A DNA stretch of 64,000 nucleotides, from positions 128,001 to 192,000 of the forward strand of contig JAHPZA010000006.1 in NCBI GenBank assembly GCA_019058445.1, read 5' to 3'. Within the stretch, counting starts at the first letter, position 1, and each line of letters begins with the position of its first letter. Position numbers and translations under genes: made by a program. This DNA is from Promethearchaeota archaeon. GTDB lineage: Archaea; Asgardarchaeota; Lokiarchaeia; Sigyniarchaeales; SOKP01. Shown piece by piece: positions 24,140 through 62,688 of the stretch. The notes below the pieces were generated by a model. It did not search any database. It was not told the DNA's origin and worked only from the letters and a program-made list of their open reading frames with translations.

Positions 24140-25474
24140 CTATAGGTCGATTTTAGGAATAACGTCCTCTAATTCCCTGCGTGTGGGTTTATATTTGAAG
24201 AGTCTACGAGATTCGCTATCTTCAAGCACATAATTAGATCCTCCACCATGCAGCATACAGTACGCATCAAGCAACCCTATTGGATTGGAATATTGTCTAA
24301 TAAATCCACGTCCACCCATGGTCCTGAAACAATGTGTAGCAGCTTCAAATGCTAATTCAGTGGTTTGAATTTTTAATCCCATCGCTTGAGCTGCCATTAA
24401 TTTTGAGCCTCCAAGTTCAGGGCGCTTATCTAATTCTCTCGTATAATTTATCAAAGCTGTTAATAAAAGATTCAACTGACGTATATTAGCTGAAATTGGA
24501 AATCTAATAACTTGATATTCATGTAATCTTTGTTCAAACTGTCTTCTATGTAACGCGTATGTATGGGAATATAATAGTTTCTTCATCGCATCTCCAAGAG
24601 CTTCCGCGCCTATTACCAATCTTTCTTCAGTTAACTGATGAAATGCGATATCCAATCCATTTCCCTGAAGAAGATTTTCTCTTGGGAGCTCTACTCTGTC
24701 AAAAATTAGACGACTTACAAAAGCGTCTCTCATTCCATAAGTTCTTATTCGAGCTGATCTAAAGTTTTTTAATTGTTGGTGTTCTGTATCTACAATTACA
24801 GCACCTAATGGACCGTTATTTATTCTACCATATAAAATTATATAATCGGCGATCATTCCATTAGTAATAAAGACTTTTTTTCCTTTTGCAATTACCTTAT
24901 CATCAGTAACTTGTAAATTTAGCTCCATTCGAAAGATGTCACTCCCTGCATTGAATTCAGTCATTGCCGATGCTGCTATTGCTCCATCTTTTGCAATAGG
25001 GTTTAAAAATTTTTCTCTTTGATAGTCGTTTGCCTTATAATTTACAGGATTGCAATAAAGGGTACCTCCCGCAAGGCGTCCCATCTCAATACTCCAATTT
25101 CCAGCTATATAGCGTTCACTGTAATCAGACCATCTCCCCCCACAAAGAGCATAAGCAATAAGAGCATTTCTCGTTATTTTCCCAACTTCATATTCATTTT
25201 CATTTAATGTTGTGGAATAATAACCATTTTCGGCTAGTTTTTTCATGATTTTTATAACAATATCTCGCTTTTTGTCTTGAGTAGGCTCCTCTACGTAGTA
25301 ATTTAGTTCTTCTAATGCTCTGAGATCTTTATCAAGATTTTTCTCTATGAATTCATAAAAATCAGCCAAAAACTCTTTCTCTTTCGCATTCAAAATCGGA
25401 TTTGCTAGTAAATCTAACTCTTGAACATATTTTTGAATACTAATAGGTTCAAATTCACTCAATCTGGTATCCAT
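24140..25474 (-). CDS. acyl-CoA dehydrogenase family protein
   Basis: AMTEFNAGSD, GKKVFITNG, RRQFEQ and MGGRGF motifs; the C-terminal 'I.EG' position reads LHGG. Confidence 0.88.
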   Translation of the reverse strand: MDTRLSEFEPISIQKYVQELDLLANPILNAKEKEFLADFYEFIEKNLDKDLRALEELNYYVEEPTQDKKRDIVIKIMKKLAENGYYSTTLNENEYEVGKITRNALIAYALCGGRWSDYSERYIAGNWSIEMGRLAGGTLYCNPVNYKANDYQREKFLNPIAKDGAIAASAMTEFNAGSDIFRMELNLQVTDDKVIAKGKKVFITNGMIADYIILYGRINNGPLGAVIVDTEHQQLKNFRSARIRTYGMRDAFVSRLIFDRVELPRENLLQGNGLDIAFHQLTEERLVIGAEALGDAMKKLLYSHTYALHRRQFEQRLHEYQVIRFPISANIRQLNLLLTALINYTRELDKRPELGGSKLMAAQAMGLKIQTTELAFEAATHCFRTMGGRGFIRQYSNPIGLLDAYCMLHGGGSNYVLEDSESRRLFKYKPTRRELEDVIPKIDL

Positions 25475-25631
25475 ACTAACCTTTTCTCACTTAAATTAAT
25501 AAAATTTTGTTATTATACTCTATGGTAAATATAAGTTTAAAGGTAAAAAAATTTTATAATTTTATATCAATAATAATTAAACATATAGAATTTCAGCTTT
25601 AATTAGAAATGATAAATTAAAAATAGATAAT

Positions 25632-53466: not shown

Positions 53467-54600
53467 TTAACCACCTCCCTCCAATACAAATAATATACTA
53501 TTTTGAGCACAAAAACCCACCTGTCCAGAAGCAATTGCTTTCTTGGCACCGGAAACTTGATACTCATCTGCTTCCCCTCGAAGTTGCTTCGCAGCTTCTA
53601 CTATTCTTGTCAGTCCACAAGCACAAGGAGTAAATGCACTCATCGCCCCTCCAGAAGGATTTAATGCTGATCCTGAATCAAGCAACGTCGCTCCTTTTCC
53701 ATTTTCAGCCAATTTTGCTGCCTCTGCTAATATTAATTCTTCACACGATGTATGTCCAAAGAGTTCTGCTACATCAATTTCAGATTTAGGATCACTTATT
53801 CCAGCCATTTTATACGCTTTTTCGGCCGCTTTTTCCATTGAAACGCTTTTGCTTAAATCTCTATCACCTAAATAATAGGTCTCCTGACATTGTCCCATCC
53901 CGGTGATCCACACGGGGGTATCCGTAATTTTTAAACTTTGTCTCTCAGGAGCTAAAATCATCGCAGTTGCCCCATCACATGGGATAGGATACATCAATTC
54001 CCTTAAGGGACTGCTTAAAACCTCAGAATTTAACACATCTTGCACAGAGATATCCGATTTTTTCACATCTGGTAAAGCTAAAGGATTTTTCGCAGAATTC
54101 TTATAACCTTGTACTGCAACCTTCGCAATTTCTTCTTCGCTCACGCCAAATGCTTTCATATAAGCCCTCATTTGCATTCCTCCAGCAGTATATGAGTTTA
54201 TCAAACTTATGGTTCTATCAAAAGTAGGATCTAATTCCAAGATTCTCACTGGCTCATATAAATAGCATGATGGCATGCTAAATCCATATATCATCGCTAA
54301 TTTATGGTTACCTGATAATATTCTATACTGCCCGTAAGCTGCGGCATGCGCTCCATCCATTTCGACTTTAGTCTCGTCCTTCATATAAGCCCCCCCTGCT
54401 TCTACTTTAAAGCAGTTCGAAATAGTTTTTCCATCATAGTAATCGTTCGTGCACGTTACTACAGTGGTAATATCTTTTCTTTTTAAACCAGCAGAATCCA
54501 AGGCTCCCCTCACTGCAGAGTAAATGGCTTCATAGGGACTCATCATCATATCCAGTTCAGGTTTTAGTTGACAATACCCAACAATTCCTACTCGTTCCAT
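53467..54600 (-). CDS. thiolase-fold protein, Ltp4-like (no catalytic Cys)
   Basis: NDYYDGK, ETKVEMDGAHA and NPSGG motifs. Confidence 0.85.
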   Translation of the reverse strand: MERVGIVGYCQLKPELDMMMSPYEAIYSAVRGALDSAGLKRKDITTVVTCTNDYYDGKTISNCFKVEAGGAYMKDETKVEMDGAHAAAYGQYRILSGNHKLAMIYGFSMPSCYLYEPVRILELDPTFDRTISLINSYTAGGMQMRAYMKAFGVSEEEIAKVAVQGYKNSAKNPLALPDVKKSDISVQDVLNSEVLSSPLRELMYPIPCDGATAMILAPERQSLKITDTPVWITGMGQCQETYYLGDRDLSKSVSMEKAAEKAYKMAGISDPKSEIDVAELFGHTSCEELILAEAAKLAENGKGATLLDSGSALNPSGGAMSAFTPCACGLTRIVEAAKQLRGEADEYQVSGAKKAIASGQVGFCAQNSILFVLEGGG

Positions 54601-54602
54601 CT

Positions 54603-55082
54603 TCATCCACCTCCCACCGGTTCAAAACCCGCAATATCGTTGGGATGACCTTTAACATTTTTCGCCCATACAACTTTCACCTTCATCCCTTCTTTTAGAG
54701 AATCTGGACTTATGTTTATGATCGGCGCTATTATGCCTGTATCAGCTCCATCAATTTGAATCAATCCCACCATAATGGGTTCCTTTGCCTTTCTTGCTCT
54801 ACGCTCTGTAACATTATAATTAGATACTGTGAAATTTTTTAGTACTCCATTTTCAGGTAATTCCACGAATTCCTCAGCCTTAGCAAAACAGTCACCACAT
54901 CGATTTCTTGGTGGCAAAAACACACGCTGGCACTTGGAACATTTGCTGCCTATAAATTGTTTGTTTTGCAAACCGTCATAGAATTTATCCATTACAATTC
55001 CTACCCAAAAATCAAACTCAGCACGCACCATGCCTCGTTTCACATAAACATCTTGTTCATCTTCAAGATTTAATTTTGAAAT
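54603..55082 (-). CDS. DUF35 Zn-ribbon/OB-fold protein (probable ATT start)
   Basis: CSKC..PPRNRCGDC and DGAD. The frame extends upstream of the GTG at 55043 to an ATT 6 nt after GGGTGA. Confidence 0.85.
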   Translation of the reverse strand: MSKLNLEDEQDVYVKRGMVRAEFDFWVGIVMDKFYDGLQNKQFIGSKCSKCQRVFLPPRNRCGDCFAKAEEFVELPENGVLKNFTVSNYNVTERRARKAKEPIMVGLIQIDGADTGIIAPIINISPDSLKEGMKVKVVWAKNVKGHPNDIAGFEPVGGG

Positions 55083-59076: not shown

Positions 59077-59445
59077 TTAAGTTTTAATAATGATTGTAAT
59101 TGCTCTCGTAAGACGGATAACGTCCATAACTTTTCCTTGCTCTACGATGATTTGTTCTCGACTTATTGCGTGGGTAAAATCTCCTTTTCCTTCACATATT
59201 CGTACGATAGCATTCGGATCTCCAGACATAACAATCTCTGCATTTGGGAGTGTTCCATCCACAATTTTTCCTTTCTTCTCCTTAATTTCTAAATAAAAGG
59301 GATCTTCATTCTCCAGATTAAATTGAAAAGTCATATCCCAGTTTACATCCTTGCCAGCAACGTTAGTAACAAATACCGTTTGTGCCTTAGGATTTCCATT
59401 TAAACCTTCAATAACTTTTGTTAAATTTTCTTTTGCAGCTCCCAT
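59077..59445 (-). CDS. SCP2 sterol/lipid-binding domain protein
   Basis: 122 aa; FQFNL....FYLEIK.......G....AEIVM..D.....I..G pattern; operonic with DUF35 and thiolase. Confidence 0.75.
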   Translation of the reverse strand: MGAAKENLTKVIEGLNGNPKAQTVFVTNVAGKDVNWDMTFQFNLENEDPFYLEIKEKKGKIVDGTLPNAEIVMSGDPNAIVRICEGKGDFTHAISREQIIVEQGKVMDVIRLTRAITIIIKT

Positions 59446-59447
59446 TT

Positions 59448-59951
59448 TTAAGCACCTCCCTCGTATTCTGGTTTAGCAATCCATCTTTCATACTCATCTT
59501 CAGGTACAAAAAAGAAATCCGTCATTTTACCTTCTCTGTTTTTGGAAAATACCGCTTTAACTCTTCGTCCTTTTTTAACTTTTGAGGGAACTAGATTTTC
59601 TGAAAATATTCCTTGAAATAAAGCAGTGTCAGCTCCATCTAATTTTATAAAACCTATAGAATAGGGTACCGATTTTATAAACGCAGAAGTTGTATACCAA
59701 ACGATAGTGCTAACCTCAATCGTTCCTGTTTGTTTCATTTCAATCCATTCGGTAGGCGAATAACATTCTGAGCAATTAATTCTTGGAGGCATCCATATTT
59801 TCCCGCAATTTGAATTAGTGCATTTAGTTCCTAACAACTTTTTATTGTTCATGACCTCAATAAAGAACTTAGATTGTCCTCCCATCGTGTATTTATAGTT
59901 AATTTTAATTATATCCCTTATTTCATGTGATTGAAAATCTTGCTTGCTCAT
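59448..59951 (-). CDS. DUF35 Zn-ribbon/OB-fold protein
   Basis: GTKC....C..PPRINCSEC and KLDGAD; ATGA overlap with the thiolase stop. Confidence 0.9.
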   Translation of the reverse strand: MSKQDFQSHEIRDIIKINYKYTMGGQSKFFIEVMNNKKLLGTKCTNSNCGKIWMPPRINCSECYSPTEWIEMKQTGTIEVSTIVWYTTSAFIKSVPYSIGFIKLDGADTALFQGIFSENLVPSKVKKGRRVKAVFSKNREGKMTDFFFVPEDEYERWIAKPEYEGGA

Positions 59952-61275
59952 GGTTGTTTCAATCCCTCCTCATTCGTCATTACAATAATCGCAGCATATG
60001 CTGCTCCAGGACCTCCAATTGAGTGCGCTATAGCCCTGCCTTTTTCAATTGTTACTTGGTGCTTACCAGCATCTTCTCGAAGTTGTAGTGCTGCTTCTCC
60101 TGTGCTCATAATCCCTGTAGCACCTACAGCGTGACCGCATCCAATCAATCCTCCTGATGGGCAACATGGTACTTCACCATTAATCCATGGCCCTTCTCCT
60201 GGTTTTTCAAAGCTATTTTCAATCCAAGGACCTCCTTCTCCAAAAGGAACAAATCCCAATTCTTCATACGATATAACCTCTTGCCCGCTAAATGCATCAT
60301 GCAGTTCTGCTAAGTCAACTTGTTGCTTTATTTTATTATAATCAAGTCCTGCCATTTTATAAGCTACTTTAGCTGCATTAATATTTGAATATAATCTTCC
60401 CATATCTTCTCTATTACCTATAAAACAGTCAGTATTCGCCGCACCTACACCCGTAATCCAAATTGGTTTTTCAATACCTAATTCCTTAACTTTTTCTTCT
60501 GGTGCTAGAATTAAGGCCGCTGATGCTTCTGAGTAAAGACAACAATCTAACATTTTAAAAGGATAACAAATAATCCTCGAATTCAAGACATCTTCAATTG
60601 TTAAATCCATCGGAGACTGCGCTTTAGGATTAAGCATTGCGTTTCCATGGTTTTTAACGCTAACAATAGCCAAAATTAACTAAACGTTAAAATTTTAAGC
60701 CATATGCTCTTCAGTTGGATTTCCAAATTCCTCAAAATGAGCATTAACCATAGAAACGTAAGAACTAGCTGCCATCATCCCCATAGGATACTCATAAGTC
60801 AAATCTGCTGAATATGCGATGGCATTGAGCACTTCTGGTGTTGTTGTACCTGTTTAAACTTATTAGGGATATCCTAATTGATTTGTTCATCGTAACAATC
60901 GTTACATTTTTCCAGACCAAGACATAGGCATAGGTCTGACAACCCAGAAGCAACTTCAGCATAAGCCATCCTTACAGTATAGCCGCCTGTAGCACCTCCT
61001 GAGGCAATCCGGGTACCTGGCTTATCATTCATCCCGATGTAACTATTAGTAAAAATATCCGGCATGAATTGCCGTTCAAACAGCTCGTTATAAATCCCAT
61101 ACACTGTTGATTCCAAGTCTTTGTGCGTAATTTGTGCTCCGTTCTTATTGGCATCGTCAAGCGCCAATTTTGTCGCGTCATAAGCCAGCTCAAAATAGGT
61201 CTTATCCAAATATCTTGCTCTAAAAGGTGTTATTCCTACACCTATTATCGCTACTTTTCTCACTTTATTTTTCAC
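59948..61275 (-). CDS. thiolase-fold protein (no canonical Cys), 422 aa after removal of two introns; join(complement(60883..61275),complement(60696..60853),complement(59948..60665))
   Basis: Exon 1 has KVAIIGVG, ASGGATGG and EK. The hidden middle exon reads TGTTTPEVLNAIAYSADLTYEYPMGMMAASSYVSMVNAHFEEFGNPTEEHMA. Exon 3 has VSVKNH, ELHDAF and GHAVGATG. Confidence 0.88.
60666..60695 (-). other. BHB-type intron, 30 nt (thiolase intron 2)
   Basis: mRNA: AU GGCU UA^A AAUUUUAAC GUUUA GUUAAUUUU GGCU AU^U GU. The unspliced frame has UAA (spanning the 5' junction) and UAG; the spliced sequence reads EHMAYVSVKNH. Confidence 0.75.
60854..60882 (-). other. BHB/BHL-type intron, 29 nt (thiolase intron 1)
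   Basis: mRNA: GAAC AA^A UCA AUUAGG AUAUC CCUAAU AA GUUU AA^A CAGG. Removal fixes both a stop and a frameshift; the spliced sequence reads DCYDEQTGTTTPEV. Confidence 0.8.
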
Positions 61276-61354
61276 TCAATATTTTTTAGATTTTTTTGAA
61301 TATATTATAGATATAGATTTAATTTGTCTTTAATCATATTTTAAAATTGTTAAT
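61190..61354. repeat. repeat copy 1: native thiolase 5' end plus upstream promoter region
   Basis: TAGGTCTTATC..AAATATCTTGCTCTAAAAGGTGTTATTCCTACACCTATTATCGCTACTTTTCTCAC ... ATATAGATTTAAT ... ATATTTTAAAATTGTTAAT. Confidence 0.85.
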
Positions 61355-61475
61355 CTTAATTTTGAATTATTAGGTTTGATTCAATAAGAATAGTATAAAT
61401 AATTTTTATATATTAACATAAGTTTTAGATTACTATGGATAATCCAGTTATTATATTTTAAAAAGAGACTTTTCT

Positions 61476-62144
61476 ATGGAAAACTCGGGTGATCAATATT
61501 CCGTTAAATATTCTGTTAAATATATTCTTATTCATTTTGGCTTAATATTAACAATAATTGTTGTTTTATATATAATAAGTGATATTTATCGATGGGGGCT
61601 GGATCCATACCAATTCTTAGGTTATGCTTTTTTATCAACTTTGGCTTTAGTTATCTTATTCGTTGGTATTTATCATATTCACGCTGAAAGAAATAAAATA
61701 GATTTCTTCGAAATTACATCCCCTAAAACTTTTATCAATATAATTTTAAGAAAAAGTTGGCTATTTGCAATTATTTGCATTCCAGTTGGAATATTTTTTA
61801 TATCAATCAATTTATTATCAAGTTTTTTATTTGGTTTCGAGCTTATTCGGTTATCATATGATCTGTGGTTCTTCATCATTTTAATTACTGGAATAATGGA
61901 ATTAATAAACGGTTGTCTTATATTAAAATTCAAGTCGTTCAATGTTAATTTAAATATTATTGCTTATTTATTGAATATATTAACATTGCTTTGGTACCTT
62001 ATTATATGTGGTTTTGGGATGCTATTTTATTCATTATTAGTATTTTTTCATTTCTTTTTTGTAGTACTGATTTATCAATTTATATTTAGTGTTTTGAAAA
62101 TTCTCAAAAATAAGGATCTTCTTAATAATTTTTCATTATTATAA
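61476..62144 (+). CDS. multi-pass membrane protein; in-frame zinc ribbon lies just past the stop (to 62228)
   Basis: About six TM helices. After TAA at 62142 the frame continues ICKNCGYKSLGPFEICSNCRIKQNKEN*. Confidence 0.65.
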   Translation: MENSGDQYSVKYSVKYILIHFGLILTIIVVLYIISDIYRWGLDPYQFLGYAFLSTLALVILFVGIYHIHAERNKIDFFEITSPKTFINIILRKSWLFAIICIPVGIFFISINLLSSFLFGFELIRLSYDLWFFIILITGIMELINGCLILKFKSFNVNLNIIAYLLNILTLLWYLIICGFGMLFYSLLVFFHFFFVVLIYQFIFSVLKILKNKDLLNNFSLL

Positions 62145-62257
62145 ATTTGTAAAAACTGTGGATATAAATCATTGGGTCCTTTTGAAATCTGTTCCAATTG
62201 CAGGATTAAACAAAATAAAGAAAATTAAACAAAAGTAGTAAAGTAAGATAAATCATT

Positions 62258-62418
62258 TCAAATTAGGTCTTATCTAAATATCTTGCTCTAAAAGGTGTTA
62301 TTCCTACACCTATTATCGCTACTTTTCTCACGTTTTTTCACTTAATTTTATTCGTATTTTTTTATATATTATAAATATAGATTTAATGTTTATTTGCTAA
62401 TATTTTAAAATTGTTAAT
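62258..62418. repeat. repeat copy 2: near-identical orphan copy of thiolase 5' end plus promoter
   Basis: About 74 nt nearly identical to 61190-61263, followed by a diverged promoter block. Confidence 0.85.
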
Positions 62419-62688
62419 ATTTCCTCAAATGATGGTTTATTAATTATAAGTAGAAATTTAGAACGATTGGAATAAAATGTAAATTATGAATAATCCGCGT
62501 TTTAATTTGTCTTGAATTGTATTTCAAAATGTTAAAATGTCTTAAAGTATGAATTTCAAATAAGTAAAAATCTTATTTTATATAACTAAATGTTTAATAA
62601 TAGCAAAATAGATAAGAATAAATATAAATGCACAAAAAAATTGTTCTTTCTAAATTGCTACTAAGAGAAATTACGATCAGTAAAAGAT

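Follow-up and report, generated by a model that had tools for sequence, protein, structure and literature searches.

Short inserts with BHB anatomy interrupt a thiolase-family gene and other protein genes of a Promethearchaeota genome and are very likely removed by mRNA splicing

The window, by which we mean the whole 64,000-nucleotide stretch of DNA that was analysed, lies on contig C6 of a 4.6 Mb genome that is 92.6% complete. On its minus strand, from 61275 to 59948, it carries an interrupted thiolase-family gene in three pieces. These pieces match the thiolase N- and C-terminal families, and the near orthologs of the gene come almost all from the Promethearchaeota (= Lokiarchaeota). Excising 60666-60695 and 60854-60882 yields an intact thiolase-family frame of 422 aa. 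The gene and its neighbours are arranged as follows (here and below, a hyphen within a short motif marks the cut or junction):

60883..61275, minus strand: exon 1 of the thiolase-family gene, 393 nt, with a GTG start at 61275
60854..60882, minus strand: putative intron 1, 29 nt, frameshifting; central helix GAAC/GUUU, bulges AA-A and AA-A, junction DEQ-TGTT
60696..60853, minus strand: exon 2, 158 nt, whose final bases are ATG GCT TA
60666..60695, minus strand: putative intron 2, 30 nt, phase 2 in codon 181, with TAA and TAG in frame
59948..60665, minus strand: exon 3, 718 nt, whose first bases are T GTT AGC; motifs KNHGN, HDAF and GHAVGATG
59448..59951, minus strand: ChsH2/DUF35-type OB-fold gene, downstream, overlapping the thiolase stop
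59077..59445, minus strand: SCP-2 sterol-transfer family gene, after the ChsH2/DUF35-type gene

We infer that the thiolase, ChsH2/DUF35-type and SCP-2 genes probably form one operon. A second pair of thiolase-family and DUF35 genes, this one uninterrupted, is found 5 kb downstream (window 53467-55043, minus strand). Near position 61000 the interrupted gene encodes the motif RIASGGATGG, with Gly where typical thiolases have the N-terminal catalytic Cys; in combination with the DUF35 partner, this points to a thiolase-fold enzyme of a non-canonical kind and not to a true acetyl-CoA acetyltransferase. The region 62247-62504 resembles 61180-61458 and is a degenerate, stop-terminated copy of the first ~26 codons of the thiolase plus ~190 nt upstream, apparently the result of a local duplication that took in the promoter and the start of the gene.

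In the public annotation exon 1 starts 12 nt later and is named as a 129-aa protein (P0102). Interrupted genes of this kind appear in databases as fragments of 129-152 aa or 241-311 aa, or as hypothetical proteins, and many of the database proteins P0088-P0115 are fragments of the thiolase gene truncated at known insert positions. Other fragments in this set stop near residues 43-48, 73-78 and 159, which may reflect further insert positions or merely contig ends. None of 115 database proteins exactly matched the spliced product of an interrupted gene, a sample that is small and uninformative.

A preliminary description, made from the sequence alone, had reported a 30-nt insert with UAA and UAG in frame and a BHB fold consisting of central helix, two bulges, inner stem and a weak outer helix. 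All of these elements held. The insert lies at 60666-60695 on the minus strand, directly before VSVKNH, and its parts are:

60698-60701, minus strand: 5' arm of the central helix, exonic; GGCU, made of the G of Met179 and the Ala180 codon GCT
60668-60671, minus strand: 3' arm of the central helix, intronic; GGCU (GGUU in two relatives)
60695-60697 and 60665-60667, minus strand: bulges UAA and AUU, 3 nt each
60672..60694, minus strand: inner hairpin, a 9-position stem with two U-U mismatches and a 5-nt loop
60698-60702 and 60668-60672, minus strand: TGGCT direct repeat, the second copy overlapping the intronic helix arm

The central helix forms four of four pairs (2 G-C and 2 G-U), and the inner stem seven of nine, rising to nine of nine in the relatives L046 and L069. 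The outer helix has only ~2 pairs, which are invariant (A-U and U-G) and raise the computed energy when included. All BHB features that can be tested from sequence are present except a strong outer helix. Thermodynamics alone is unconvincing: the fold is weak compared with shuffled sequences (z = -1.3 to -2.1), and the BHB conformer (-5.9 kcal/mol) lies ~5 kcal/mol above the minimum-energy fold (-10.8 kcal/mol), in which the GGCU/GGCU register is retained and the bulges are collapsed. The argument beyond chance rests on comparison. An Rfam search of 59500-62500 gave no match at E up to 1, and a group I or group II self-splicing intron is ruled out, since the insert has only 30 nt against a catalytic core of hundreds of bases.

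The residue at the junction depends on the register of removal: cutting by the BHB rule yields MAYVSVKNH, deletion at the repeat MAIV, and an intermediate register MAFV. The preliminary description had predicted Tyr from the BHB rule and had proposed that Tyr versus Ile separates splicing from a DNA-level insertion, to be checked in intron-less orthologs. In 47 insert-free orthologs residue 181 is Leu in 24, Tyr in 19, Phe in 2, Met in 1 and His in 1; Tyr or Leu is thus found in 43/47 and Ile in 0/47. The nearest of them (P0080), 93.8% identical to the spliced frame, reads EEHMAYVSVKNH. The insert-free orthologs therefore support the predicted Tyr junction. A wider protein search returned Leu 35, Lys 9, Tyr 7, Met 4, Ile 2 and Glu 1. 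One of the two Ile cases is a database read-through of the insert itself, but the other (P0036, locus L244) is genuinely insert-free and reads MAIV, showing that Ile at this position is rare but possible. The criterion of Tyr versus Ile therefore held only in part and is not absolute.

We found the codon-181 insert at six other genome loci, on nine metagenome contigs and on two further contigs, giving 13 distinct versions of intron 2, six of 30 nt and seven of 29 nt. At the BHB junction ten of these read TA-T (Tyr) and three TT-A (Leu), while the mixed combination TA-A, a stop codon, is absent. The two halves of the split codon thus covary across the insert in a way that avoids the stop. The central helix is paired in all 15 aligned sequences, and 94% of cells in the BHB pairing are paired, compared with 24-45% in slid controls. 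In the inner stem 90% of cells are paired, and four of the nine pairs are altered on both sides. These sequences are related, and two of the four compensated pairs trace back to one division between two subfamilies, so the covariation counts overstate the number of independent events. The Ala180 codon is GCT in 13/13 insert-bearing versions versus 18/59 other genes. In the gene tree, copies with the codon-181 insert lie dispersed among insert-free relatives, a pattern that would imply repeated precise loss or spread by recombination, although the deep branches are poorly supported.

Inserts are not confined to these two positions. Defined by alignment, without use of the BHB motif, 30 inserts of 29-35 nt were found in 17 of 68 distinct thiolase copies, with up to three per gene, at ten positions (codons 12, 128, 129, 149, 150, 154, 179, 181, 307 and 309). 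For all 30, the BHB register is among the registers that restore the protein. A full 4/4 central helix at the protein-restoring register occurs in 22 of 28 unique inserts, compared with a mean of 1.6 and a maximum of 8 over 2000 shuffles; the other six have only 3/4 pairs, so that three or more pairs are seen in 28/28, versus 10.5 expected. Intron 1 is also present in L011 and L069, and in L069 its helix carries compensatory changes (GAGC/GCUU). The preliminary claim of two introns and three exons in one thiolase coding sequence is therefore supported, with splicing inferred and not shown, and the register of intron 1 is refined to the BHB register 60854-60882.

The first alternative is a pseudogene, inactivated by a DNA insertion that duplicated TGGCT at its target site. 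In its favour are the 5-nt direct repeat, the in-frame stops and the public annotation of the pieces as fragments. However, intron 2 is common to the window and L022 at dS about 1.0, and genomes that share the insert differ by dS about 1 or more, with exons that remain intact at dN/dS about 0.04. Exon 2 compared with the two nearest orthologs gave dN 0.017-0.043 and dS 0.5-0.9; each exon of the window gene is conserved by dN/dS analysis, and the median dN/dS is 0.036 among insert-bearing genes and 0.043 among insert-free genes. All 17 interrupted copies can be restored to an open frame of 400-427 aa, the shortest being truncated by a contig end. The interrupted genes are therefore under normal purifying selection (dN/dS about 0.04) and are not decaying. 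Target-site duplication also predicts an empty site reading MAIV, which the preliminary description had named as part of what would favour an inactivating insertion; this was seen in 0/47 insert-free genes and in one protein of the wider search. In addition, the gene for EF-2 is interrupted in the same way (see below). We consider this explanation very unlikely.

A second possibility, readthrough of the stops or a different genetic code, would give a protein with ten extra residues. The 30-nt window version does keep the frame, and one database entry translated a related version with TAG=Q. Against this, seven of the 13 versions are 29 nt long and thus frameshifting, like intron 1; TAA and TAG would both need decoding, and neighbouring genes terminate normally under table 11. 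This explanation is all but excluded.

The main rival at the codon-181 site is translational bypassing of the T4 gene 60 type, with take-off at GCU of Ala180, landing at the second GCU and resumption at AUU, giving MAIV from uncut RNA. The window fits well, with GCT followed by TAA, a hairpin and a landing GCT, and at this site only it resembles T4 gene 60 (PMC5009743) in combining a short non-coding insert and matched codons on its flanks with an adjacent stop and a hairpin. Matched GCU codons occur in 11/13 versions, both 29- and 30-nt lengths are compatible, and Ile is tolerated in one ortholog. However, the bypass products would carry Ile (3), Lys (1) or Asn (7), residues unseen in the close insert-free orthologs, which have Tyr or Leu; the landing codon is absent in 2/13 versions, and in three versions the take-off codon is followed by UUA and not by a stop. 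Unlike in T4 gene 60, matched codons are missing at most sibling inserts: they give the right peptide in only 3/30 other inserts, and in none at intron 1 or EF-2. Nor does bypassing account for the 4-bp helix and the 3-nt bulges that are conserved at every site. We judge it very improbable.

Finally, slippage between the TGGCT repeats might remove the insert from the DNA of some members of the population, a switch between on and off states that would yield MAIV. The L244 sequence GCT ATA GT is the exact product of a repeat-to-repeat deletion from a Leu-type insert, but a single TTA-to-ATA substitution accounts for it equally well. Most other inserts lack a repeat of this kind, and excision at the DNA level would not lead one to expect conserved RNA pairing with G-U pairs in it. 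This model, too, is very unlikely.

The TGGCT repeat itself, noted in the preliminary description, is real; the suggestion that it may record how the intron was gained was not supported as a general mechanism. The direct repeat is 2-5 nt long among intron 2 versions and 1-3 nt at most other sites, which argues against duplication as a general route. Exonic GGCU can pair with eight 4-mers, GGCU among them, and the preceding T pairs into the inner stem; the repeat is best explained by this self-pairing helix. A decayed 7-nt duplication remains possible at the codon-181 site only.

Homology-defined searches identified at least ten BHB inserts in seven genes of the genome. Besides the two in the thiolase gene, these are:

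C10:684116-684145: EF-2, 30-nt BHB insert with a stop, in the GTPase domain (L158, L161)
C9:775863-775892: Sir2 gene, single 29-30-nt BHB insert
C6:862879-862908 and C6:877181-877209: two acyl-CoA synthetases, one 29-30-nt BHB insert each
C10:622214-622245, 621871-621900 and about 621764-621795, minus strand: acetyl-CoA synthetase-like gene, three BHB inserts
C10:5858-5887: unidentified gene, single 29-30-nt BHB insert

Homologous EF-2 inserts occur in three relatives (L170, L174 and L182), at two positions 6 nt apart. The interrupted EF-2 has the diphthamide-loop histidine, which a paralog on C9 lacks; by the criteria of 10.1101/262600 it is the canonical translocase, and the C9 paralog is unlikely to substitute for it. 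The strongest indirect case for removal of the inserts is that EF-2, an essential gene, carries an in-frame stop in four genomes.

Relatives' proteins covered 465 kb of the genome in this comparison. The seven events that break a frame there are without exception 29-30-nt BHB hairpins; small frameshifts were not encountered, and none of 32 stop-free indels had a comparable hairpin. This sample was picked partly for the thiolase and EF-2, so any figure of tens per genome is merely a rough extrapolation. Scanning the genome for BHB motifs that join open frames, done twice without use of homology, did no better than controls in which the excision was shifted by 1 or 2 nt. The signal is drowned by gene junctions, and only homology-defined inserts are therefore counted. 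One candidate (C3:503429-503457) has an ATG and a sequence like a ribosome-binding site and was discarded as an ordinary gene junction, and further weak BHB candidates were likewise dismissed as gene junctions. Three closed genomes from another family (G044, G050 and G055) had an open, uninterrupted EF-2, and none of their 36 AMP-binding matches had an internal stop; five loci examined in G045 showed no clear insert.

Two further observations concern single genes. The acetyl-CoA synthetase-like gene has an extra stop-free stretch of about 20 residues after PTYP. The acyl-CoA dehydrogenase gene of the window (24143-25486, minus strand) is uninterrupted, and its ortholog in G009 has a 31-nt BHB-type insert (L195:14227-14257).

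Some inserts at different sites are alike. The L244 insert at codon 12 (L244:1510-1540) and the L013 insert at codon 154 are identical at 25 of 31 nt (shuffle mean 8.9, maximum 20); their sites are about 430 nt apart and both lie behind the exon end TGGGAA. Similar inserts also occur 5-6 nt apart, at thiolase codons 307/309 and in EF-2. In an all-against-all comparison, similarity across positions was weak save for a few pairs. Likeness at both distant and nearby sites suggests re-insertion where the same half-motif is available, and the route, for example reverse splicing followed by DNA repair, is inferred.

The genome encodes RtcB. Its sole EndA match lacks the catalytic Tyr and His motifs and resembles a beta subunit, and a gene for the catalytic EndA alpha was not found in the 92.6%-complete assembly. 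EndA alpha with catalytic motifs is present in nine of nine congeners (L226-L234), and Memo, the neighbour of the EndA alpha gene, was also not found in the assembly; that both adjoining genes are missing suggests an assembly gap. Asgard EndA is reported to be a two-subunit enzyme with a loop linked to relaxed substrates (PMC5829648), and relaxed motifs are known for two-subunit EndA (PMC2738675). ARAGORN called only 23 tRNA genes in the genome, most with odd introns and many of them doubtful, which suggests heavily interrupted tRNAs.

We propose that 60666-60695 is very likely a BHB mRNA intron spliced by EndA, for which there is no transcript, cleavage or peptide evidence. In the pre-mRNA the exonic GGCU would pair with the intronic GGCU between two 3-nt bulges, and the two-subunit EndA would cut behind the second bulge base (UA-A and AU-U). 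RtcB would then ligate the exons, with UA+U forming the codon for Tyr181, and the 29-nt intron 1 would be removed likewise, giving the 422-aa thiolase-family protein. In this scheme the 29-35-nt BHB introns of the Loki lineage would be inherited, lost and apparently slid or moved to sites with the same exonic half-motif. The anatomy, homology, covariation, exon selection and recurrence in other genes are shown; cleavage, ligation, the acting enzymes and mobility are inferred.

A bolder reading is that one Lokiarchaeia family routinely splices its mRNAs, in tens of genes per genome including the canonical EF-2 and three-intron genes, and that short BHB introns have spread to new coding sites with a shared exonic half-motif; taken jointly, we regard this as likely. 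Split protein genes may then be commonplace in some of the closest prokaryotic relatives of eukaryotes. If true, relatives of the eukaryotic ancestor have an exon-intron gene architecture without a spliceosome, overlooked so far because the genes are annotated as fragments. Multi-exon genes, with that of an essential translation factor among them, would demonstrate that the tRNA-splicing machinery is able to sustain mRNA splicing in general, which is relevant to how intron-interrupted genes were tolerated before the spliceosome and nucleus. BHB introns are chemically unrelated to spliceosomal introns. That one insert recurs both far away and within a few bases gives a starting point for asking how BHB introns arrive and move. 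In practical terms, Loki genomes are mis-annotated at interrupted genes.

Asgard and Thermoproteales tRNA genes contain multiple non-canonical introns (bioRxiv 10.64898/2026.10.13.758758), and the coding inserts resemble these in being short BHB inserts, several per gene, with repeated gains and positions limited by an exonic half-motif. That study proposed transposition for Thermoproteales and found no general arrival route; it covers tRNA genes only and does not mention mRNA introns. Unlike the tRNA introns, the thiolase family has one intron family at two distant sites, with the TGGGAA exon end. For mRNA, the 5'-UTR BHB intron of HVO_1309 in Haloferax volcanii (PMC7714728) is a precedent for EndA acting on mRNA through a BHB motif, an action that is inferred for the Asgard inserts. 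The HVO_1309 intron, in contrast, sits in an untranslated leader and leaves the reading frame unbroken. As of 2020 the same paper named cbf5 as the only other archaeal mRNA case.

We found no reports of Asgard coding-region mRNA introns in the literature searched, which did not cover most subscription journals, and within that literature cbf5 is the only archaeal coding-region BHB intron. The cbf5 pre-mRNA intron is known from Desulfurococcales and Sulfolobales (Watanabe 2002; Yokobori 2009, PMC2738675), and the TruB/Cbf5 domain match in the window genome is an open 338-aa frame without a stop. Like the Asgard inserts, the cbf5 intron is a short, codon-splitting BHB-type coding intron, cut behind the second bulge base, with patchy gain and loss, and its hosts belong to a lineage with two-subunit EndA. 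Splicing of cbf5 was shown by cDNA, whereas the Asgard inserts are without RNA proof. But cbf5 has one intron at one position in one gene, while in the Asgard archaea a gene has 2-3 introns, one gene family has inserts at ten positions, and at least seven genes are interrupted in a single genome. What we describe is thus very likely a new, multi-intron and multi-gene form of the known BHB mRNA splicing, with splicing itself inferred.
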